Origin: a virus
Length of the DNA: 43,021 bases
UHGV virus genome: UHGV-0126275
Strand: one strand, 5' to 3'
How positions within the stretch are numbered: the first letter of the stretch is position 1; each line of letters begins with the position of its first letter. Below, piece after piece: positions 3,315-38,903 of the stretch. A program made the translations under genes and the position numbers. Below the pieces are notes generated by a model. The model did not search any database. It saw only the letters and a program-made list of their open reading frames with translations, and was not told the DNA's origin.

Positions 3315-4337
3315 TTACTCGAATTCTGGACGCATATCGTTAAGCGTCATCATGAATTTTTGGTGATATTCATCACCGAGCTTTTCAGCCATGGTGTTAA
3401 TCTCATTTTCAGCGCGCTTGAACATCGTTTTTGCATCTTCAGCAGATGGATCCAGGCTATTAAGTATCGCGATGATATATTCTCGAGCTTCTTCTCGTTC
3501 TGAATCTGAAATTGGCGACAGGTGTTGACGCTCATCGTCAACTACGGAATATTCACCAGTGATAACAGCTGCGTTATCTTGGCTAAGTCCAGCTTCAGCG
3601 CGCTCATCCATAACAACAGCCTTCTGCATTTCAATAGAAACAGGAAGATATTTGAATAGTCGGCGAATTACTGTTTTTTTAGCCATCTCATCGAAGTGAT
3701 CAACCCATGGGCCACTGCTACCGGCTTTGCTCAGTGCACGAACTTTCTCAATGTCTGCCCGGCTCATAACTTCAAATTGGACTCCGCCATCTTTCAGTCG
3801 TGCAACGGCGTAAACGTGCGTTAATTCTCCGCGGTCACCTGTTTCGCAAGGTAAATGCTCGAGCGTTTCTTCCAGGCCGTATGAGTAGCTGAATTTGTCG
3901 TTTGTATGTACGGTACGAGCCGAGATACTCAGGATCTGCCCAGAGCGGCGGGCAAGGTCAATCATTCCGCGATAGCCGATAATCAGCTGTGCTTCTGTAG
4001 ATACGGTTTCCCATCTTCCATTTACTTTCTGGCGTTTGTCGAACGGTATCAGGTAAGCGTGTCCAAGAGCTCCGCCTGGTTCAAGACCCAATTGGGCACA
4101 TTGCATAATTGCCCCCAGGAAGCTGGCTTGGTCGCATGATGCAAGTTTTGGAACCTTTCGGATCTCTGTGGTTGCTATGCGCGCCAGACGGTCTGCTGTC
4201 ATGTGCTTTGGAAGTGCCAAAGCCATCTGAGCTTTAATTTTTGGGTCTGCCAGAAGTCCGGCCAGAGTTGTTGGTTTCTCATTATGATGTGCAACTTGGT
4301 TACCGGTAGCCGCTGCCTTAAGTGCATTGATAGACAT
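3315..4337 (-). CDS. recT: RecT-family single-strand annealing recombinase
   Basis: 340-aa translation resembles RecT (central 'AYLIPFDKRQK...' region and acidic C-terminus); lies immediately downstream of a YqaJ-type exonuclease, the canonical pair. Confidence 0.8.
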   Translation of the reverse strand: MSINALKAAATGNQVAHHNEKPTTLAGLLADPKIKAQMALALPKHMTADRLARIATTEIRKVPKLASCDQASFLGAIMQCAQLGLEPGGALGHAYLIPFDKRQKVNGRWETVSTEAQLIIGYRGMIDLARRSGQILSISARTVHTNDKFSYSYGLEETLEHLPCETGDRGELTHVYAVARLKDGGVQFEVMSRADIEKVRALSKAGSSGPWVDHFDEMAKKTVIRRLFKYLPVSIEMQKAVVMDERAEAGLSQDNAAVITGEYSVVDDERQHLSPISDSEREEAREYIIAILNSLDPSAEDAKTMFKRAENEINTMAEKLGDEYHQKFMMTLNDMRPEFE

Positions 4338-4346
4338 TTTTTCTCC

Positions 4347-5225
4347 TTACTTCATTCTGAAGACGCGTTGTGTCGTTGTTGTTTTGAATTTTTCGAATAA
4401 CTCAGGGTGTACTGACTGGAATAGCTTCTGGTCGAATCTGTTGCTGATCTGAGATTTCCATGTGCAGAGCGGCTTTCCGTCCAGGGTCAGGACTGAGTGC
4501 TCTTGCATGTACATCTTCAGCTTCTCTTCTGATATAGCTATTTCTTCTTCCAGTGATTTTCTGCGTGACTTCATGTCTCGTAGATCGTTGAATAGTGCGA
4601 GTGCCTTTCCGTCAGCCTCGATACTTGTCCCTGCATCTTTCTCAAACATCAGCGATACATCGCTTACGCTGGTAGCTTCCGGCGGGTTAAGATTTTTCAC
4701 TCGGTCCCAGAAAGCGATTTCTTTTTCTAAGATCGCCTGGATAGTTTCTTCATCACGCTCAACCCGATAGATTCGGAAGTCGTCGCCACCGATAAGCACA
4801 CCGAAAACGCATACCTGTTTGTTTGTAACCATCAACCCGTGCATGGCCTGGGCCGTGTAATGCACAGGAATTGCATCTGTCTGGATTTCTCCCCATTCTT
4901 TGGCTTTGAACGGACTAACTGTTTTGATCTCAATGTTCTCGCCTGACGCTGCTTCTGCATCGATCTCAGCTGCAATAAAATCGTAATCACGGTGGATATA
5001 GCGGTTTCCGCGATGAACGATTTCCATCCCTGTTTCCTCAGAAAGCAGGTCTATTACGTATGGCTCCATACGCTGGCCACGCGTGAAAACTTTCTGCTTG
5101 CTTGGGTCTACTGGTTTGACACGTGGCTGGACCTTATCCAGATAAACCTCAAGCGGGGTGCGCCATGGGCTAATTCCAAGAATCCCTGCAACATCGCTTC
5201 CTCCGATGTATTTTGTTCTATCCAT
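4347..5225 (-). CDS. YqaJ-like (lambda-exonuclease fold) recombination exonuclease
   Basis: N-terminus 'MDRTKYIGGSDVAGILGISPWRTPLEVY' is the YqaJ signature; start taken at that Met. Confidence 0.8.
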   Translation of the reverse strand: MDRTKYIGGSDVAGILGISPWRTPLEVYLDKVQPRVKPVDPSKQKVFTRGQRMEPYVIDLLSEETGMEIVHRGNRYIHRDYDFIAAEIDAEAASGENIEIKTVSPFKAKEWGEIQTDAIPVHYTAQAMHGLMVTNKQVCVFGVLIGGDDFRIYRVERDEETIQAILEKEIAFWDRVKNLNPPEATSVSDVSLMFEKDAGTSIEADGKALALFNDLRDMKSRRKSLEEEIAISEEKLKMYMQEHSVLTLDGKPLCTWKSQISNRFDQKLFQSVHPELFEKFKTTTTQRVFRMK

Positions 5226-5716: not shown

Positions 5717-5793
5717 TTACCGTTGAGGTAATAATTATGCTTATTTGGTTTGGTGTCAATAGATATGAGTTAAAAAAATTACCCGTAAGGTAA
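5717..5793. promoter_or_regulatory. Left operator pair: two copies of the palindrome TTACC-N5-GGTAA (5717..5731 and 5779..5793)
   Basis: TTACCgttgaGGTAA and TTACCcgtaaGGTAA bracket the candidate leftward promoter, one over the -10 and one just upstream of the -35. Confidence 0.6.
5731..5759 (-). promoter_or_regulatory. Candidate leftward early promoter (-35 TTGACA, 17-nt spacer, -10 AATTAT on the minus strand)
   Basis: Read from the reverse complement; flanked by palindromes at 5717..5731 and 5779..5793. Confidence 0.5.
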
Positions 5794-13629: not shown

Positions 13630-15101
13630 CAGATACAGCGTTATCTCCTGAAGAGCAGTTAATCGAGGATATTGCAGGGTTCACTCACGATCCGCTTGGC
13701 TATGCCCTCTATGCGTTCCCATGGGGGGAAGAGGGGACTGAACTGGCACATGCCACCGGCCCACGTCAGTGGCAGGCTGATGCGTTCCGAGAGATACGTG
13801 ATCACCTGCAGAATCCAGAGACGCGATATCAGCCGCTTATGCTGGCACGTGCTTCTGGTCACGGTATTGGTAAATCCGCATTCATCTCAATGCTGATCAA
13901 CTGGGGCATGTCCACTTGCGAGGATTGTAAGGTCGTGGTGACCGCCAACACCGACAACCAGCTACGAACGAAGACCTGGCCGGAAATTATCAAGTGGTCA
14001 AACCTTGCTATCACGAAAGACTGGTTTACCTGTACCGCTACCGCGATGTACAGCAATGACCCTGGGCACGACAAGCGGTGGCGAGCTGACGCAATCCCCT
14101 GGTCTGAGCACAACACTGAGGCGTTCGCCGGACTACACAACGAGCGCAAACGCATCATCGTGGTATTCGATGAAGCGTCGAACATTGCGGATCTGGTGTG
14201 GGAAGTTGCTGAGGGTGCGCTTACGGACGAAGACACTGAGATTATCTGGGTAGCGTTCGGAAACCCTACACGTAACACCGGGCGTTTCCGCGAATGTTTC
14301 CGCAAATATAAACACCGCTGGAAAACTGCGCAGATTGACAGCCGGACGGTGGAAGGCACTAACAAACAGCAGTTGCAGAAATGGGTTGATGACTACGGGG
14401 AAGATAGCGACTTCGTTAAAATCCGTGTGCGCGGCATATTCCCTGATGCATCTGAATTGCAGTTTATCCCTACCGGTCTTACTGACGAGGCAATGAAACG
14501 GGTGGTAACCGCTGCGCAGGTTGCACATGCTCCGGTGATAATCGGTGTTGACCCGGCATATTCAGGCGTTGATGACGCGGTGATATACCTGCGGCAGGGG
14601 CTACACAGTAAGGTGCTGTGGACTGGCAACAAGACTACCGACGATCTGATTATGGCGAAGCGTATCGCTGACTTTGAAGACCAGTATCAGGCTGACGCGG
14701 TGTTCATCGACTTCGGTTACGGAACCGGTTTGAAGTCAATCGGTGACGGCTGGGGTCGTACATGGCAACTTGTTCCGTTCGGTGGCGCGTCTACTGACCC
14801 GCAGATGCTCAACAAGCGTGGGGAGATGTTCAACTCATGCAAGACATGGCTGAGGCTCGGCGGCATGCTGGATGACCAGGAAACAGCGGACGACCTGTCG
14901 ACGGCAGAGTACAAAGTTCGCGTGGACGGTAAAATCGTTATCGAACCGAAGGAAGATATCAAGGAGCGGCTTGGGCGTTCTCCTGGTAAAGGCGATGCGC
15001 TACTGCTGACGTTTGCGTTCCCTGTGTCGAAGCGTCTGCGAATTCCCGGGCAGCAGAACCAGCAAGGCAAGGCCATCACAGATTACGATCCATATGCTTA
15101 A
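13626..15101 (+). CDS. terL: Terminase large subunit
   Basis: 491 aa; position and size, with ATPase-like 'ARASGHGIGKSAF' (Walker A-like) and a nuclease-like C-terminus. Confidence 0.85.
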   Translation: MTDTALSPEEQLIEDIAGFTHDPLGYALYAFPWGEEGTELAHATGPRQWQADAFREIRDHLQNPETRYQPLMLARASGHGIGKSAFISMLINWGMSTCEDCKVVVTANTDNQLRTKTWPEIIKWSNLAITKDWFTCTATAMYSNDPGHDKRWRADAIPWSEHNTEAFAGLHNERKRIIVVFDEASNIADLVWEVAEGALTDEDTEIIWVAFGNPTRNTGRFRECFRKYKHRWKTAQIDSRTVEGTNKQQLQKWVDDYGEDSDFVKIRVRGIFPDASELQFIPTGLTDEAMKRVVTAAQVAHAPVIIGVDPAYSGVDDAVIYLRQGLHSKVLWTGNKTTDDLIMAKRIADFEDQYQADAVFIDFGYGTGLKSIGDGWGRTWQLVPFGGASTDPQMLNKRGEMFNSCKTWLRLGGMLDDQETADDLSTAEYKVRVDGKIVIEPKEDIKERLGRSPGKGDALLLTFAFPVSKRLRIPGQQNQQGKAITDYDPYA

Positions 15102-15149
15102 TCCGCTGGTGGGGATAATGTCGTTGATATCCTCTGATGAGGATAAAAC

Positions 15150-15175
15150 AAAGCCAGCTCATCGGCTGGCTGTTT
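15150..15175 (+). terminator. Rho-independent terminator after terL
   Basis: GCCAGC-TCATCG-GCTGGC followed by TGTTTG; immediately followed by the 12-bp palindrome. Confidence 0.6.
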
Positions 15176-15191
15176 GTGACATGTCACGGTG

Positions 15192-15563
15192 TTATTGCTC
15201 GCTTAACTTCTGCTTCAGCAAGTAACCTTCAAGCATCCAGATTTTGTTTACAGCATTCTGCCGGGCAATCTTCCGACCAATTTCCGCATCAAAGTTTTCC
15301 GGGCTTGCACAGGCGCTCTCTCCGGTGACGGTGAAGCCGTTGCGCAGCACCAGGATGCAGAACGTCAGCAGAGAAAGTGATTCGTGCGGCTGGTAGTTTA
15401 CCTCTCCGCCAGTATGTTTCTCTTTTATGGCTTTGCCAAAGGCACCATCTTCTGCTGTGAAATATGCCTCCTGAGCAATAATGCCTTCGATATGGTCTGG
15501 CGTAACGCGCGGTGCCGTTTTGCCTTTCTCAACGATTTCTTTTTCGATTTGCTGGTCGTTCAT
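15192..15563 (-). CDS. Hypothetical protein (123 aa) in the tRNA island
   Basis: ORF with AAGGTGAG RBS; terminator-like hairpin directly upstream of the RBS; LexA-like palindrome about 65 nt upstream. Confidence 0.55.
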   Translation of the reverse strand: MNDQQIEKEIVEKGKTAPRVTPDHIEGIIAQEAYFTAEDGAFGKAIKEKHTGGEVNYQPHESLSLLTFCILVLRNGFTVTGESACASPENFDAEIGRKIARQNAVNKIWMLEGYLLKQKLSEQ

Positions 15564-15628
15564 AATCTCACCTTAAAAAAAGCCCGCGAATCGGGCGAAC
15601 TGGAAGCAATGAGTTATGCCTTCCGTGG

Positions 15629-15644
15629 CTGTACTGGTTTACAG
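15629..15644. promoter_or_regulatory. Candidate LexA (SOS) box, CTGT-N8-ACAG
   Basis: CTGTactggtttACAG; central octamer only moderately AT-rich, so weaker than the 35610 box. Confidence 0.35.
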
Positions 15645-15679
15645 CATGAAGCCATCGCAATGGCGTCCTGCTGTAAAAA

Positions 15680-15716
15680 GGGCGGTGATAGTCCTTCAAG
15701 GGAAACCATCACCGCC
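15680..15716 (-). terminator. Rho-independent terminator downstream of the tRNA
   Basis: On the minus strand GGCGGTGAT (18-nt loop) ATCACCGCC followed by CTTTTTA. Confidence 0.5.
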
Positions 15717-15759
15717 AAGCCCCTGGAACTTCTGGCATCACGGTCCTTAGGCGTGATTC

Positions 15760-15836
15760 TGGCGTGGCATGCAGGATTCGAACCTGCGACCAACCGCTTA
15801 GAAGGCGGTTGCTCTGTCCAACTGAGCTAATGCCAC
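15760..15836 (-). tRNA. tRNA-Arg (anticodon UCU), phage-encoded, argU-like
   Basis: Reverse complement folds as a cloverleaf: acceptor GTGGCAT/ATGCCAC, D-arm GCTC-AGTTGGACA-GAGC, anticodon stem ACCGC/GCGGT with loop CTTCTAA, T-arm GCAGG-TTCGAAT-CCTGC, encoded CCA end. Confidence 0.9.
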
Positions 15837-16158
15837 AACGCTGAGAGCACTTAGCCTGTTAAGGCGCCACACTTTGTCGCGGCTCCATAAATGCTCTCAT
15901 CGTTGTACCCTCGTCTCTTCCGAGGCGTCACACCGAATCGCCGGGATGGTGAATCCCCGTGCGCGGAATAAAACCGCTCGACTTGCACATTCCGGCTACC
16001 TGGTTCGTTTGCCACAGCCAGGGAGGGTGCCCCTTAAACGTATCCAGACCGCTATCGGCGCATGTGCCATACGCCGTACTGCTCAAAATAAAAGCTCACT
16101 CCACCTGTTCAATTTAACGACAAGCCAGTCAGGTTAGTAACCGGAATGAACTCTTTTG

Positions 16159-16173
16159 TTACCTGAAAGGTAA
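16159..16173. promoter_or_regulatory. TTACC-N5-GGTAA palindrome upstream of the head-gene block
   Basis: TTACCtgaaaGGTAA, about 90 nt upstream of the ORF at 16264. Confidence 0.5.
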
Positions 16174-16263
16174 TAATTTGTGCGTTAAATGTCAACCACC
16201 TACGATAAATAAATCATATGTGGTTAAATTGGTAATAATTTAATTGCGTACGGAGTCATTGAT

Positions 16264-16470
16264 ATGTGCATGGGTAGCTCACCATCAGTGCCTGCAACAC
16301 CAGAAGTTCAGGCAGCACCACAGGAGCAGGATGCCGCCGTTGTTGATGCCCGCGACGAAGAAACTCGTCGCCGTCGCGCTGCTGCTGGTCGTAGTTCTAC
16401 GCTGCTTACCGGTTCTCAGGGCGACACATCAACCGCTAATACCAGCGGTAAAACGCTGCTTGGTCAGTAA
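16264..16470 (+). CDS. Small hypothetical protein (68 aa) upstream of portal
   Basis: Shares an almost identical ribosome-binding context (CGGAGTCATTGA-ATG) with the portal gene. Confidence 0.5.
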   Translation: MCMGSSPSVPATPEVQAAPQEQDAAVVDARDEETRRRRAAAGRSSTLLTGSQGDTSTANTSGKTLLGQ

Positions 16471-16484
16471 CCGGAGTCATTGAA

Positions 16485-18164
16485 ATGGCGGAAACAACTA
16501 AAGAGCGATTGAACAAACAGTTCGCACAACTTGAAAGCGAGCGTCAGTCGTTCGAGCCGCACTGGCGCGAGTTGAGTGATTACATCAACCCGCGTGGTTC
16601 CCGCTTTCTGGCTTCTGAGGTTAACCGTAACGATCGACGCAATACACGCATTATTGATTCGACCGGGACTATGGCGGCGCGCACTCTCGCCAGCGGCATG
16701 ATGTCAGGCATCACAAGCCCCGCGCGTCCGTGGTTTCGCCTGGCTACGCCAGATCCTGAAATGATGGATTATGGCCCTGTTAAGTTGTGGCTTGAGGCGG
16801 TGCAGAACCGCATGAACGATATGTTCAATAAGTCGAATCTCTATCAGTCGCTGCCGCAGTTATACGGAAGCCTCGGCACATACAGCACTGGTGCAATGGC
16901 AGTGCTGGAGGATGACGAGGACATCATTCGCACAATGCCATTCCCGATAGGCAGTTACTACCTGGCTAACTCACCTCGTGGCAGTGTGGACACCTGTTTT
17001 CGCAAGTTCTCTATGACTGTTCGTCAGCTTGTTCAGGAGTTCGGGCTAAATAACGTCAGCGAATCCGTAAAAAGCATGTGGGAAAGCGGAACCTACGAGA
17101 AGTGGATTGAAGTGATGCATTCGGTTTACCCGAACATTGACCGCGATACATCGAAGCTGGATAGCAAGAACAAGCCATTCAAATCGGTTTATTACGAGGT
17201 TGGTGGCGATAACGACAAGTTGTTGCGTGAGTCCGGATTCGATGAGTTTCCAATTATGGCCCCGCGCTGGGAAGTTAACGGCGAAGATGTTTATGGATCA
17301 TCATGCCCGGGTATGCTGGCGCTTGGACCTGTTAAGGCATTGCAGCTTCTCCAGAAGCGCAAGTCGCAGTTGATTGATAAAGCCACCAATCCGCCGATGG
17401 TTGCTCCGAATTCCCTCAAGAATCAGCGTGCCTCCCTTCTTCCTGGCGACATCACGTATATCGATCAGATTACTGGTCAGGATGGTTTCAGGCCTGCTTA
17501 TCTGGTTAACCCCAGTACAGCAGATTTGGTGGCAGACATTCAGGACACTCGTCAAATCATTAACAGCGCCTACTTTGTCGATCTGTTCATGATGTTGCAG
17601 AACATCAATACCCGCTCGATGCCTGTGGAAGCGGTGATCGAAATGAAAGAAGAAAAACTTCTGATGTTGGGGCCGGTTCTGGAGCGCCTGAACGACGAAT
17701 GTCTTAATCCTCTCATTGATCGCTCTTTCTCGATGATGGTGCGTAAAAACATGCTGCCGCCACCGCCTGACGCGATGGAAGGCATGCCCCTGAAGGTCGA
17801 ATACATTTCCGTCATGGCTCAGGCGCAGAAGTCTATCGGCCTGTCCAGTCTGGCGTCCACGGTTAACTTCATTGGTCAACTTGCGCAAGCGAAACCAGAA
17901 GCTCTCGACAAACTCAACGTTGATCAGGCGATCGATGCATTCGCTGATATGTCCGGAGTGTCTCCAACCGTCATTGTTCCGCAGGAACAGGTTGAGCAGG
18001 CTCGCCAGCAACGGGCACAGCAACAACAGCAGCAACAAATGATGGCGATGGGGATGGCGGCGGCACAGGGTGCCAAGACGCTAAGTGAAGCTAAAACTTC
18101 GGATCCGAGTGTTTTGTCAGCTATGGCGAATGTAGTTAGTGGTCAGGGTGGGCAATCACAATGA
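16485..18164 (+). CDS. Portal protein
   Basis: 559 aa, immediately after terminase and before scaffold/capsid; poly-Gln segment near the C-terminus. Confidence 0.8.
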   Translation: MAETTKERLNKQFAQLESERQSFEPHWRELSDYINPRGSRFLASEVNRNDRRNTRIIDSTGTMAARTLASGMMSGITSPARPWFRLATPDPEMMDYGPVKLWLEAVQNRMNDMFNKSNLYQSLPQLYGSLGTYSTGAMAVLEDDEDIIRTMPFPIGSYYLANSPRGSVDTCFRKFSMTVRQLVQEFGLNNVSESVKSMWESGTYEKWIEVMHSVYPNIDRDTSKLDSKNKPFKSVYYEVGGDNDKLLRESGFDEFPIMAPRWEVNGEDVYGSSCPGMLALGPVKALQLLQKRKSQLIDKATNPPMVAPNSLKNQRASLLPGDITYIDQITGQDGFRPAYLVNPSTADLVADIQDTRQIINSAYFVDLFMMLQNINTRSMPVEAVIEMKEEKLLMLGPVLERLNDECLNPLIDRSFSMMVRKNMLPPPPDAMEGMPLKVEYISVMAQAQKSIGLSSLASTVNFIGQLAQAKPEALDKLNVDQAIDAFADMSGVSPTVIVPQEQVEQARQQRAQQQQQQQMMAMGMAAAQGAKTLSEAKTSDPSVLSAMANVVSGQGGQSQ

Positions 18165-35609: not shown

Positions 35610-35625
35610 CTGTATGTTTATACAG
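35610..35625. promoter_or_regulatory. LexA (SOS) box CTGT-N8-ACAG
   Basis: aaCTGTatgtttatACAGta; near-consensus with AT-rich spacer, just upstream of the small antirepressor-like gene. Confidence 0.7.
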
Positions 35626-35664: not shown

Positions 35665-35679
35665 TTACCCGAAAGGTAA
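35665..35679. promoter_or_regulatory. TTACC-N5-GGTAA palindrome upstream of the antirepressor-like gene
   Basis: aTTACCcgaaaGGTAAt. Confidence 0.5.
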
Positions 35680-35783: not shown

Positions 35784-38700
35784 ATGACGGTCTCAACCGA
35801 AGTTGACCACAACGAATACACCGGTAACGGCGTTACGACATCGTTTCCGTATACTTTTCGAATTTTCAGAAAATCAGACCTGGTTGTTCAGGTGTCTGAT
35901 CTGAACGGAAACGTAACAGAATTGGTCCTGGATACCGGTTATACGGTAACTGGGGCGGGCACTTATAGTGGCGGTTCTGTGGTTCTTCCGTCTCCGCTTG
36001 CTACTGGATGGCGAATTACGATAGATCGTGTGCTTGATGTAGTGCAGGACACAGACCTTCGCAATCAGGGAAAATTTTTCCCCGAAGTGCATGAAGATGC
36101 CTTTGACTACCTGACGATGCTGATCCAGCAATGTTTTGGGTGGTTCAGACGTGCATTGATGAAACCATCTTTGCTTGCAAAATATTACGATGCAAAGCAA
36201 AACAAAATTTCTAACCTTGCAGATCCATCATTTGAGCAGGACGCTGTAAATAATCGCTCAATGCGTAATTATGTCGATGCTGCAATCGCCGGAGTTGTTG
36301 GTGGTTTTGGTTGGTTTATTCAGTATGGTTCTGGGGCTGTGTACCGAACGTTCCAGGATAAAATGCGTGATGCTATTAGCCCCAAAGATTTTGGAGCTGT
36401 TGGTGATGGTATAAATGACGATTCCACTGCAATAAGCGCGTGCCTTGAAGCCTCATCTCCAGGTTATAAAATTGACGGATTAGGGCTTACTTTTAAAGTA
36501 TCAACTCTTCCGGATGTCAGTCGATTTAAAAATGCTCGTTTTTTATTTGAGAGAATACCGGGCCAGCCTCTTTTTTATGCTTCTGAAGATTTTATCCAGG
36601 GAGAGTTATTTAAAATTACAGATACACCGTGGTACAACGCCTGGACGCAGGATAAAACGTTTGTATATGACAATGTCATCTATGCGCCTTTTATGGCTGG
36701 AGACCGCCATGGTGTAAATAACCTCCATGTTGCATGGGTTCGCTCAGGAGATGACGGGAAGACCTGGACAACGCCGGAATGGCTTACAGATTTACATGAA
36801 AACTATCCCACAGTTAACTATCACTGCATGAGTATGGGGGTTGTCAGAAATCGCCTTTTTGCTGTAATTGAGACGCGGACCGTGAGAGGAAATAAACTGC
36901 AGGTTGCAGAGTTGTGGGATCGCCCAATGAGTCGCAGCCTTCGCGTTTATGGTGGTATAACGAAAGCAGCAAATCAGCAAGTCGCTTATATTCGCATTAC
37001 TGATCACGGATTATTTGCTGGTGATTTTGTCAACTTCTCAAACTCTGGTGTTACAGGTGTTACCGGGAATATGACGGTGACTACTGTTATTGATAAAAAT
37101 ACCTTTACAGTTACGACGCAAAATACCCAGGATGTGGATCAGAATAACGAGGGTAGATACTGGAGTTTTGGCACATCATTTCACTCGTCACCATGGAGAA
37201 AAACCAGTCTTGGAACTATTCCTTCTTTTGTTGACGGAAGCACTCCTGTTACTGAGATTCACAGTTTTGCGACGATTAGCGATAACAGTTTTGCTGTTGG
37301 CTACCATAATGGTGATATTGGTCCACGCGAGCTTGGGATACTCTATTTCTCTGATGCTTTCGGTTCTCCTGGTAGCTTTGTTCGCAGACGCATACCTGTA
37401 GAATATGAGGCGAATGCATCTGAGCCATGTGTAAAATATTATGATGGCATTCTGTATCTGACGACCAGGGGGACATTAAGTACTCAACCCGGTAGTTCAT
37501 TGCACAGAAGCTCTGATTTAGGTACATCATGGAATTCTCTTCGCTTCCCAAATAATGTTCATCACTCAAACCTTCCTTTTGCCAAAGTTGGCGATGAGCT
37601 GATTATTTTTGGCAGTGAGCGCGCATTTGGTGAGTGGGAAGGAGGAGAACCTGATAACCGTTATGCAGGAAATTATCCAAGAACATTTATGACCAGAGTT
37701 AACGTCAATGAGTGGAGTCTGGATAATGTAGAGTGGGTTAATGTTACTGATCAGATTTATCAGGGCGGAATAGTTAACTCTGCGGTTGGTGTTGGTTCAG
37801 TTTGTATCAAAGACAACTGGCTGTACTACATTTTCGGTGGGGAAGACTTTCTAAACCCATGGAGCATAGGGGATAACAACAGAAAATATCCTTATGTTCA
37901 CGATGGTCACCCGGCTGATTTGTATTGTTTCAGGGTGAAAATTAAACAGGAAGAATTTGTTTCAAGGGATTTTGTCTACGGAGCCACTCCTAACAGAACG
38001 CTTCCTACTTTTATGTCGACGTCAGGCGTGAGGACGGTTCCTGTACCCGTTGATTTCACAGATGATGTTGCCGTCCAGTCACTGACTGTCCATGCAGGTA
38101 CATCAGGACAAGTTCGCGCGGAAGTCAAACTTGAGGGTAATTACGCCATTATTGCGAAGAAAGTACCGTCTGATGATGTTACCGCTCAGAGATTAATCGT
38201 TAGCGGCGGTGAAACAACGTCTTCAGCAGATGGTGCAATGATAACGTTGCATGGTTCCGGAAGCAGTACTCCACGTCGCGCGGTATATAACGCACTCGAA
38301 CATCTTTTTGAGAACGGAGATGTTAAACCTTATCTTGATAATGTAAATGCTCTTGGTGGTCCGGGAAACAGGTTCTCGACAGTTTATCTTGGCTCCAATC
38401 CTGTGGTTACCAGTGACGGAACATTAAAGACAGAGCCGGTCTCTCCTGACGAAGCATTGCTGGATGCCTGGGGTGACGTCAGGTATATCGCTTATAAATG
38501 GCTGAACGCTGTCGCTATAAAGGGGGAAGAAGGGGCGAGGATACATCATGGTGTAATCGCGCAGCAACTTCGTGATGTTCTTATTTCTCACGGACTCATG
38601 GAAGAAGAAAGCACAACATGCTGCTATGCCTTTCTTTGCTATGACGATTATCCCGCAGTATATGATGACGTCATTACTGGCCAAAGGGAAATGCCGCTGA

Positions 38701-38903
38701 CTGATAATGACGGGAGCATCATTGTTGATGAGGATGATAATCCAGTGATGGTAATAGAAGACATCATTGAGCGCGTTGAAATAACGCCAGCAGGATCTAG
38801 ATGGGGGGTCAGACCTGATCTCTTATTCTATATCGAGGCAGCATGGCAGCGCAGAGAAATGGATAAGATAAAAGAGCGGGTTCAGTCTCTGGAAGAACGT
38901 TAA
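35784..38903 (+). CDS. Tailspike / tail fibre: T7 gp17-like N-terminal adaptor domain, Asp-box (sialidase-like) central region, C-terminal intramolecular chaperone (peptidase S74-like) domain
   Basis: 1039 aa; Asp-box-like 'SGDDGKTW' and 'SSDLGTSW'; 'VVTSDGTLK' (Ser-x4-Lys dyad, Ser codon at about 38412) followed by 'GVIAQQLRDVL', as in endosialidase-type chaperone domains. Confidence 0.75.
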   Translation: MTVSTEVDHNEYTGNGVTTSFPYTFRIFRKSDLVVQVSDLNGNVTELVLDTGYTVTGAGTYSGGSVVLPSPLATGWRITIDRVLDVVQDTDLRNQGKFFPEVHEDAFDYLTMLIQQCFGWFRRALMKPSLLAKYYDAKQNKISNLADPSFEQDAVNNRSMRNYVDAAIAGVVGGFGWFIQYGSGAVYRTFQDKMRDAISPKDFGAVGDGINDDSTAISACLEASSPGYKIDGLGLTFKVSTLPDVSRFKNARFLFERIPGQPLFYASEDFIQGELFKITDTPWYNAWTQDKTFVYDNVIYAPFMAGDRHGVNNLHVAWVRSGDDGKTWTTPEWLTDLHENYPTVNYHCMSMGVVRNRLFAVIETRTVRGNKLQVAELWDRPMSRSLRVYGGITKAANQQVAYIRITDHGLFAGDFVNFSNSGVTGVTGNMTVTTVIDKNTFTVTTQNTQDVDQNNEGRYWSFGTSFHSSPWRKTSLGTIPSFVDGSTPVTEIHSFATISDNSFAVGYHNGDIGPRELGILYFSDAFGSPGSFVRRRIPVEYEANASEPCVKYYDGILYLTTRGTLSTQPGSSLHRSSDLGTSWNSLRFPNNVHHSNLPFAKVGDELIIFGSERAFGEWEGGEPDNRYAGNYPRTFMTRVNVNEWSLDNVEWVNVTDQIYQGGIVNSAVGVGSVCIKDNWLYYIFGGEDFLNPWSIGDNNRKYPYVHDGHPADLYCFRVKIKQEEFVSRDFVYGATPNRTLPTFMSTSGVRTVPVPVDFTDDVAVQSLTVHAGTSGQVRAEVKLEGNYAIIAKKVPSDDVTAQRLIVSGGETTSSADGAMITLHGSGSSTPRRAVYNALEHLFENGDVKPYLDNVNALGGPGNRFSTVYLGSNPVVTSDGTLKTEPVSPDEALLDAWGDVRYIAYKWLNAVAIKGEEGARIHHGVIAQQLRDVLISHGLMEEESTTCCYAFLCYDDYPAVYDDVITGQREMPLTDNDGSIIVDEDDNPVMVIEDIIERVEITPAGSRWGVRPDLLFYIEAAWQRREMDKIKERVQSLEER

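Follow-up and report, generated by a model that had tools for sequence, protein, structure and literature searches.

What is encoded in the roughly 300 nt of non-coding DNA that adjoins a phage tRNA gene in the virus genome UHGV-0126275? The stretch analyzed here (43,021 nt, hereafter the window) comes from a temperate podovirus of the phiV10/epsilon15 type (Uetakevirus), and the region in question is 95% identical to Escherichia phage phiV10 and to other Uetakeviruses. A minus-strand island sits there between the terminase large-subunit gene and the gp3-like and portal genes. An earlier reading of the letters alone (the original prediction) had described in it a tRNA-Arg(UCU), two terminator hairpins, a LexA-like palindrome and a 123-aa gene, and all of these physical features are present where it placed them; the 300 nt it left without an explanation. 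Sequence comparison indicates that these 300 nt encode a member of a large covarying RNA family, one that would be co-transcribed with the tRNA from an operator-overlapped promoter.

A covarying RNA beside the tRNA gene

The stretch 15837..16077 is about 80% identical by blastn in otherwise unrelated phages. A structure alignment of 42 non-redundant copies (A2) and a covariance model (R1) define the core of the RNA, which lies at 15907..16077 on the minus strand (R1 136.7 bits, E 3e-45) and occurs only once in the window. Five helices covary, one of them a pseudoknot. Across the 42 sequences, 92.7% of the pair cells are paired, as against 29-49% when the partners are slid by one to three columns; 15 of the 29 pairs have changed on both sides, and none of 500 shuffles reaches the observed values. 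G-U pairs are abundant (40 U-G at one pair of helix P1, for example), and since such pairs are strand-specific, the structure exists only in the minus-strand sense, which points to an RNA rather than to a DNA site. An element acting at the level of DNA was rejected on this ground.

Read along the minus strand, the core opens with P1 (16076..16056; 9 bp, GCA loop), followed by P2 (16047..16044 with 16003..16000), whose inner stem surrounds an arm that varies but carries a YCCUUG loop. The invariant single strand GGUAGCCGGAAUGUGCAAG (16000..15982), the 19-mer GGTAGCCGGAATGTGCAAG, comes next and is separated by a variable helix, P3, from the 4 bp of P4 (15957..15954 with 15946..15943). The loop of P4 pairs with a downstream strand to form the pseudoknot (CACC 15951..15948 with GGUG 15934..15931; AACC/GGUU in cdtI-type copies), and P5 (15925..15921 with 15913..15909; 5 bp, GAAGAGA loop) completes the set. 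RNAalifold also proposed a long-range GCACAU/AUGUGC helix, which was rejected: it is itself invariant and conflicts with P1, which covaries at several positions.

Between the core and the tRNA stands a long hairpin, P6 or "module B" (15836..15905, minus strand), of the form CAACG-AU-GAGAGCAUU, then a variable interior, then AAGUGCUCUC-AG-CGUUG; the final G of the hairpin doubles as the first base of the tRNA. Of 16 predicted pairs in the closing stem, 7 show compensatory changes among 23 copies, and the module recurs across phages, one to three times per locus. A long hairpin on the 5' side of the core (16090..16155, minus strand; AAAAGAGUUCAUUCC ... GGAGUGAGCUUUU), seen in the minimum-free-energy fold, is a diverged module B, and clearer copies (CAACAUGAAAGCGCAC...GAGUGCGCUUCCAGGUGUG) stand at the same place in four other loci (L006, L010, L013 and L044). 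In two loci (L104 3662..3780 and L013 4475..4606), the variable interior of P6 holds tRNA-like T-arm sequences, GAAAGGTTCGATTCCTTTC and GGTTCAATTCC, with no tRNA call by ARAGORN.

A cmscan search of 14500..17000 against Rfam 15 (E <= 1) returned no family besides the tRNA and a spurious antisense match on the tRNA. The ORFs that cross the 300 nt, at 15874..16137 (plus) and 15851..16015 (minus), have no protein-family match, and relatives annotate differing ORFs there or none at all. To that extent the earlier description of the stretch as non-coding stands, but it is no mere leader, since it holds an RNA supported by covariation. Various "hypothetical protein" coding sequences drawn over the tRNA or the RNA on either strand (phiV10 DQ126339 2672..2923, mEp460_037, Tyrion gp54, BUCT709 WCS67766 and mEp390_036) are probably annotation artefacts. 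Literal searches of the literature with the invariant 19-mer and the P1 motif gave unrelated papers only, and a keyword search gave no description of the RNA. The family is unannotated in the records examined and undescribed in the searchable literature; the tRNA and the island were already known from phiV10-like phages.

Members of the family were found in 103 phage records, including P1, P7, cdtI and Stx2c phages. The lambdoid carriers are cdtI, mEp460, 2H10, Ayreon, twelve Stx2c phages and Stx2a_1447, and the list extends beyond P1 and P7 to D6, SJ46, RCS47, Enterobacter phage Tyrion, and Klebsiella and Salmonella phages. At least 120 IMG/VR viral contigs contain the invariant 19-mer, and prophages of Klebsiella, Salmonella and Citrobacter carry the RNA as well. 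Searched with a cdtI-type copy, 1562 of 5426 complete E. coli genomes (about 29%) have a match, on chromosomes and on P1-like plasmids, and no annotated feature underlies the RNA at the 40 E. coli matches listed. A 16-mer scan of species-representative genomes (596 Gb) gave 120 matches, of which 14 were true members and the rest mostly due to chance, as expected; the 10 true members with an organism shown all come from Enterobacteriaceae (Kosakonia, Phytobacter, Superficieibacter, Citrobacter, Kluyvera, Klebsiella and E. whittamii). One locus, L027, is alone in having tandem cores (4805..4958 and 3998..4153, minus strand; 152.5 and 112 bits), about 650 nt apart. An annotated CRISPR in E. coli 2012C-4502 (NZ_CP027440.1, 1868888..1868919) matches the P1/P2 region of the cdtI-type copy at 32 of 32 nt, and a host CRISPR spacer thus appears to target the element.

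Phage epsilon15 keeps P1 and P2 only (R1 40.6 bits; L007 1507..1588). The break falls in a UUCCCUUGAUGCU loop motif, found also in the loop of the terminator T1 (described below) in relatives such as L013, and a deletion between two short UUCCCUUGAUGCU repeats probably removed the rest of the RNA along with the tRNA. The epsilon15 record labels the remnant "RNaseIII, mRNA processing", and the overlap of that feature with P1 and P2 speaks for a processing or stability element, a substrate of RNase III, E or P that matures the tRNA or stabilizes the downstream mRNA. The long module B hairpins would suit such a role, as would adjacency to tRNAs: in 28 of the 129 copies scanned, the tRNA-Arg(UCU) sits immediately against the RNA. 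However, 84 of the 129 have no tRNA within 800 nt, the invariant single strands and the pseudoknot exceed the needs of an RNase III site, and what epsilon15 retains is a deletion remnant. A processing element is on balance an improbable account of the family.

Promoters, operators and terminators around the RNA

Where the RNA sits says more about what it might do. It is always promoter-proximal in early, operator-controlled phage operons and co-oriented with them, the copy in P1 being operon-internal. In the window, a candidate sigma-70 promoter (16159..16195, minus strand) has TTGACA at 16195..16190, a 17-nt spacer and TACCTT at 16172..16167, and its -10 element is overlapped by the operator palindrome TTACC-N5-GGTAA (16159..16173). 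The identical combination of promoter and palindrome precedes the RNA in other Uetakevirus-type loci. A weaker promoter-like site at 16085..16112 (minus strand; TTGAAC 16112..16107, 16-nt spacer, TATTTT 16090..16085) is an alternative. It ends 7 nt before P1, and several lambdoid and SopranoGao-type members have a promoter ending 6-7 nt before P1. Among the IMG/VR loci, promoters of several distinct types, with operator-like palindromes, lie 6-96 nt upstream of the RNA.

Where 0.81 copies would be expected, the window holds 15 of the palindrome TTACC-N5-GGTAA, at 5717, 5779, 6491, 6539, 6876, 8815, 8877, 12998, 13016, 16159, 33304, 33405, 34452, 34545 and 35665. From its distribution, the set looks like a phage operator network that controls many promoters, one of them between terS and terL (12998/13016). 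In the corresponding intergenic region of epsilon15, the record marks a 17-bp site for repressor binding at a distance of 91 bp from what is left of the RNA.

In six lambdoid records (cdtI, Stx2c, Ayreon, mEp460, mEp390 and Stx2a_1447, of which mEp460 and Stx2a_1447 appear to share one cI), the order is the same: cI, a terminator, a strong sigma-70 promoter with an operator-like palindrome (pL), the RNA, and then the early-left genes. The authors of the Ayreon record independently annotate this terminator and promoter and mark a further terminator within the operon that follows. Going by their annotation, these lambdoid records contain no N gene. In BUCT709, the RNA follows a divergent gene pair of the Cro/CI type, and in loci L046 and L089 it is followed by a bidirectional terminator, a convergent membrane-protein gene and then the early-left genes. 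The P1 copy lies between trnI (tRNA-Ile2, which it abuts) and the ban ribosome-binding site (RBS), within the C1-controlled ban operon. Across loci, no protein gene is consistently adjacent to the RNA.

In the window, what follows the RNA and the tRNA is a series of predicted intrinsic terminators, each a GC-rich hairpin with a U-tract on the transcribed strand. T1 (15675..15716, minus strand; hairpin 15716..15681) lies 3' of the tRNA and has 14 pairs (-22.8 kcal/mol, z -4.5) followed by CUUUUU. T2 forms one block with a Shine-Dalgarno sequence (15567..15601, minus strand): a GCCCG/CGGGC stem at 15596..15582 and a U7 tract at 15581..15575 that runs straight into AAGGTGAG (15574..15567), ahead of the ATG at 15563. 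These are the hairpins that had been reported on the strand of the tRNA; a third, T3 (15152..15171, minus strand; -12.8 kcal/mol, z -3.2), ends the unit as it converges on the terminase large-subunit gene, and phiV10 has an annotated terminator at the homologous place. Terminator-like sites number 6 in the region against 1.6 expected.

The gene behind T2 (15192..15563, minus strand; 123 aa) belongs to Pfam PF13876 (Phage_gp49_66; N4 gp49 / Sf6 gene 66; 118.1 bits against a cut-off of 27, E 2.4e-34) and to PHROG 322, both families of unknown function. The placement of its RBS directly behind a hairpin and U-tract, noticed in the original prediction, is real and is conserved in relatives. T2 is the conserved left edge of a swappable cargo slot in all of the tRNA-bearing relatives and in Uetakevirus loci without a tRNA, and at least three unrelated genes stand behind the identical RBS and start AAGGTGAGATTATG in different phages. 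Some cargo variants carry a TTACC..GGTA operator and a TATAAT promoter of their own. By such comparisons, the slot downstream of T2 is a recombination hotspot for morons, and what follows the U-tract varies among L011, L115, L123, L130, L035, L030 and other loci. No promoter-like site was found between T1 and T2, so the PF13876 gene could be transcribed only by polymerases that start upstream of the RNA and pass two intrinsic terminators.

The best explanation of this arrangement is that 16195..15152 (minus strand) forms a single accessory transcription unit. Its order would be an operator-bearing promoter, a structured RNA of about 320 nt (5' hairpin, 171-nt core and P6), tRNA-Arg(UCU), T1, T2 and the swappable cargo gene, here PF13876. 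A position upstream of terminators would also suit a riboswitch-like sensor, of a ligand or of uncharged tRNA, that controls termination further down, and the highly conserved junction and pseudoknot and the 5' UTR location in P1 point the same way. Against this, the core has no alternative terminator/antiterminator pairing, T1 and T2 being 190-330 nt away, past P6 and the tRNA; the downstream genes are mutually unrelated; and Rfam gives no riboswitch match. A sensor of this kind seems quite improbable.

Comparison with put and other polymerase-modifying RNAs

How, then, would polymerases reach the cargo gene? The reading we favor, and to which we give slightly less than an even chance, is that the RNA is a cis-acting, put-like processive antiterminator. 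It would fold co-transcriptionally and act in cis on its own polymerase like the put RNA of phage HK022, which binds the zinc-binding domain of the RNA polymerase beta' subunit (PMC9378689). Elongation would become resistant to T1 and T2, so that the promoterless cargo gene is expressed, and Rho action on the long untranslated stretch would probably be suppressed too. RNase P would cut at 15836/15837 and part the RNA from the tRNA, and lambdoid phages would rely on the same action for transcription of their early-left operon.

Several features of put invite this comparison. In HK022 and in HK639 (putL-like), put occupies the same slot, downstream of pL, after cI and a terminator, in an early-left operon without an annotated N. 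The RNA described here likewise lies behind pL in lambdoid phages lacking N, as far as record annotation goes, and put RNAs fill this slot in HK022, HK75, O276, UPF_BP1, S9-5, phiEt88, CobraSix and HK639. Both RNAs have no dedicated protein gene linked to them, and both have terminators downstream. The lack of a consistently adjacent protein gene fits a protein-independent mechanism like that of put. Terminators stand between the RNA and the genes beyond it not only here (T1 and T2) but also in L046 and L089 and, inside the operon, in Ayreon. At the sequence level, P1 and the base of put stem I share ACGGCG...CAUGCGUCG (about 15 nt), and GCGGGUAGCCGGAAUGUGCAAG in this RNA bears a loose likeness to GCGGGUUCAGGAUGAACGGCAAUG in put, short common motifs that may reflect distant ancestry or convergence.

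A good deal weighs against this reading. A put profile (6 sequences, nhmmer) searched against 1.24 Mb that contain about 125 copies of the RNA gave no match better than E 4.2, that one at a site unrelated to the RNA, and R1 finds no put at putL of HK022 or HK639; homology to put is thus rejected at the profile level in both directions. The key put residue G35 is not conserved in this RNA. Put has about 70 nt and two stems; this RNA is two to four times as large, with a core that spans about 155-171 nt before the 70-nt module B hairpins are counted, and it has five helices including a pseudoknot. HK022 has both putL and putR, whereas this RNA is usually single in a phage with no pR copy, and no consistent second copy of the core or of module B was found in the pR operon of the loci scanned, save for one tandem-pair locus. 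Unlike put, it also reaches beyond the lambdoid phages (P1/P7, Uetakevirus and SopranoGao). The copy in P1 follows trnI at a point 2.3 kb inside the ban operon, lacks P6 and has no terminator annotated after it; a P1 CRISPRi study scores the flanking trnI and ban as non-essential, which says little about function. Moreover, T3 would be needed to keep a polymerase made resistant to terminators from transcribing the terminase gene in antisense, and partial natural readthrough of T1 and T2 could suffice for expression of the cargo.

A place near the promoter of early operons also recalls the RNA sites of Nus-factor antitermination, lambda N/nut and the rrn boxA. In module B, the 3' strand (UGCUCUUU.. 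/ UGCUCUCAG..GUUGUGG) resembles boxA, the (U/C)GCUCUU(U)A motif that NusB/NusE bind in single-stranded form; in the window UGCUCUCAG sits inside the P6 stem, and in most members pairing within P6 takes up the boxA-like bases. In the lineage of L089, L033 and L046, GCUCUUUAA(C/U/A)AA follows the core by 30-37 nt, and in L089 it matches the rrn boxA exactly over 12 nt; GCUCUUUAACAA is limited to one lineage. In this same lineage (L089 at about 3360..3376, L033 and L046), P6 is replaced by a bidirectional terminator followed by boxA-like GCTCTTTAACAA, GCTCTTTAATAA or GCTCTTTAAAAA. Unlike lambda N/nut, there is no N-like gene and no boxB. Two carriers, mEp460 and mEp390, come from a phage collection reported as selected for Nus dependence (PMC11893012). 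The sequence resemblance and the reported origin of these mEp phages leave room for the involvement of Nus factors in the action of the RNA.

A wider version of the favored reading is somewhat more tentative. The RNA would then represent a new, large class of protein-independent or Nus-assisted processive antiterminators: the missing early antitermination device of the many lambdoid phages without an annotated N (the SfV-like mEp460, cdtI and Stx2c types), recruited by P1/P7 and the Uetakeviruses for expression of tRNAs and morons through terminators. Few RNAs are known to reprogram bacterial RNA polymerase directly: put, EAR and some others. If the reading is true, roughly 29% of sequenced E. 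coli genomes carry one more that has escaped annotation, and it would account for the odd terminator-before-RBS design of the phiV10-like cargo slot. The passage of early terminators in lambdoid phages without N was raised again as a question in 2025, in a study noting that those without an N homologue may use a put-like RNA (PMC12315714). This family offers a concrete candidate with a defined structure, clear boundaries and natural variants, present in Shiga-toxin phages and P1 as well as in the E. coli genomes counted above. Even without antitermination, it is a strongly constrained and abundant phage RNA missed by annotation pipelines and often covered by spurious ORFs.

An unlikely but more serious competitor is that the RNA is a stable non-coding product working in trans, for instance by sponging up a host protein or by serving host takeover or anti-defence. 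It would be made early after derepression, freed by RNase P and ended by T1, and its neighbors would be unrelated cargo. The RNA does have a strong promoter of its own and a terminator after it, tRNAs tight on either side could be processing handles, and the extreme conservation of the 19-mer and of the YCCUUG and GAAGAGA loops suggests a binding surface. The tandem copies in one locus, the bidirectional terminator directly after the RNA in L089 and L046, and the E. coli CRISPR spacer that matches it are in keeping with this idea as well. That said, the RNA is always co-oriented with and upstream of early-operon genes, never alone or at a 3' end, and the P1 copy runs directly into the ban RBS. 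A terminator that ended it would silence the whole lambdoid left operon, because the RNA is the first 300 nt of the pL transcript.

ROOL and GOLLD are large, prophage-borne non-coding RNAs, often next to tRNAs. The present family is likewise an unexplained structured prophage RNA frequently found beside tRNAs, but it shows no Rfam similarity, is much smaller, differs in host range (Enterobacteriaceae) and is strictly promoter-proximal in early operons.

The tRNA, the LexA-like palindrome and the rest of the island

The tRNA itself is genuine and phage-borne. ARAGORN calls a single tRNA in the whole window, tRNA-Arg with anticodon tct at 15760..15836 (minus strand), and the Rfam tRNA model (RF00005) scores it at 73.3 bits (E 1.5e-15), well above the gathering score of 29. 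CCA is encoded, the 3' end reading ...AUGCCAC-G-CCA. A tRNA-Arg is already annotated in O157 typing phages 9 and 10, phiv142-3, SPN9TCW and other relatives, so this part of the island was known before.

The codon usage of the phage fits this tRNA. In a crude gene set of the window, AGA and AGG stand at 8.0 and 5.4 per 1000 codons, or 12.8% and 8.7% of arginine codons. E. coli K-12 uses about 2 AGA and 1 AGG per 1000, which puts the phage roughly four-fold higher. This enrichment supports the suggestion that the tRNA supplies a rare-codon decoder, and the tRNA would help to decode the AGA/AGG-rich genes of the phage. It thus resembles other rare-codon tRNAs of phages, such as argN, argO and ileZ of Stx phages and the tRNAs of P1, its carrier being a temperate phage whose genes are rich in AGA/AGG. 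What sets it apart is its fusion, within one transcription unit, to a structured RNA that is conserved.

The palindrome CTGT-N8-ACAG (CTGTACTGGTTTACAG, 15629..15644) had been proposed as a LexA box that might place the 123-aa gene under SOS control. It exists but is most likely incidental. With 3 copies in the window where 0.69 would be expected, a count that 2 of 100 shuffles also reached, the pattern is barely above chance. The left half of the palindrome forms the 3' arm of a conserved hairpin (ACAGCA...UGCUGU), and its right half is lost in relatives of the Klebsiella/Citrobacter type that keep the surrounding block (L013, L026, L030, L081, L083 and L101). No promoter-like site accompanies the copy at 15629; of what is expected of a LexA box (CTGT-N8-ACAG with an AT-rich center, overlap with a promoter, conservation among relatives), the core pattern is there, but promoter overlap and conservation are not. 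A palindrome near chance, unconserved and without a promoter leaves SOS control unsupported, and the LexA box was rejected.

The original model as a whole, in which a tRNA moron is joined by an attenuated gene under SOS (LexA) control and the 300 nt are an ordinary untranslated leader or promoter region, is highly improbable. It was right about the tRNA and its codon supply, about the existence of the palindrome and about the terminator before the RBS. Its SOS/LexA interpretation fails for the reasons just given, and it missed both the covarying RNA, with its 80% identity in unrelated phages, and the fact that the island is shared by relatives. Indeed, genome comparison indicates that the island is not peculiar to UHGV-0126275 and is standard in phiV10-like genomes.

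To the left of the island, the terminase large-subunit gene ends at 15101. On the right, a small epsilon15-gp3-like ORF (16264..16470, plus strand) precedes the portal gene (16485..18164, plus strand). The control region from which the RNA promoter and the gp3/portal genes diverge carries GGTAATAATTT as a direct repeat, its copies lying 60 bp apart on the plus strand (16170..16183 and 16230..16243). Elsewhere in the window, CTGTATGTTTATACAG at 35610..35625 is a far better match to a LexA box than the palindrome at 15629. The operator at 35665 is 40 bp away, and downstream comes a 1039-aa ORF (35784..38903) with 25 AGA/AGG codons, more enriched in them than any other gene of the window.

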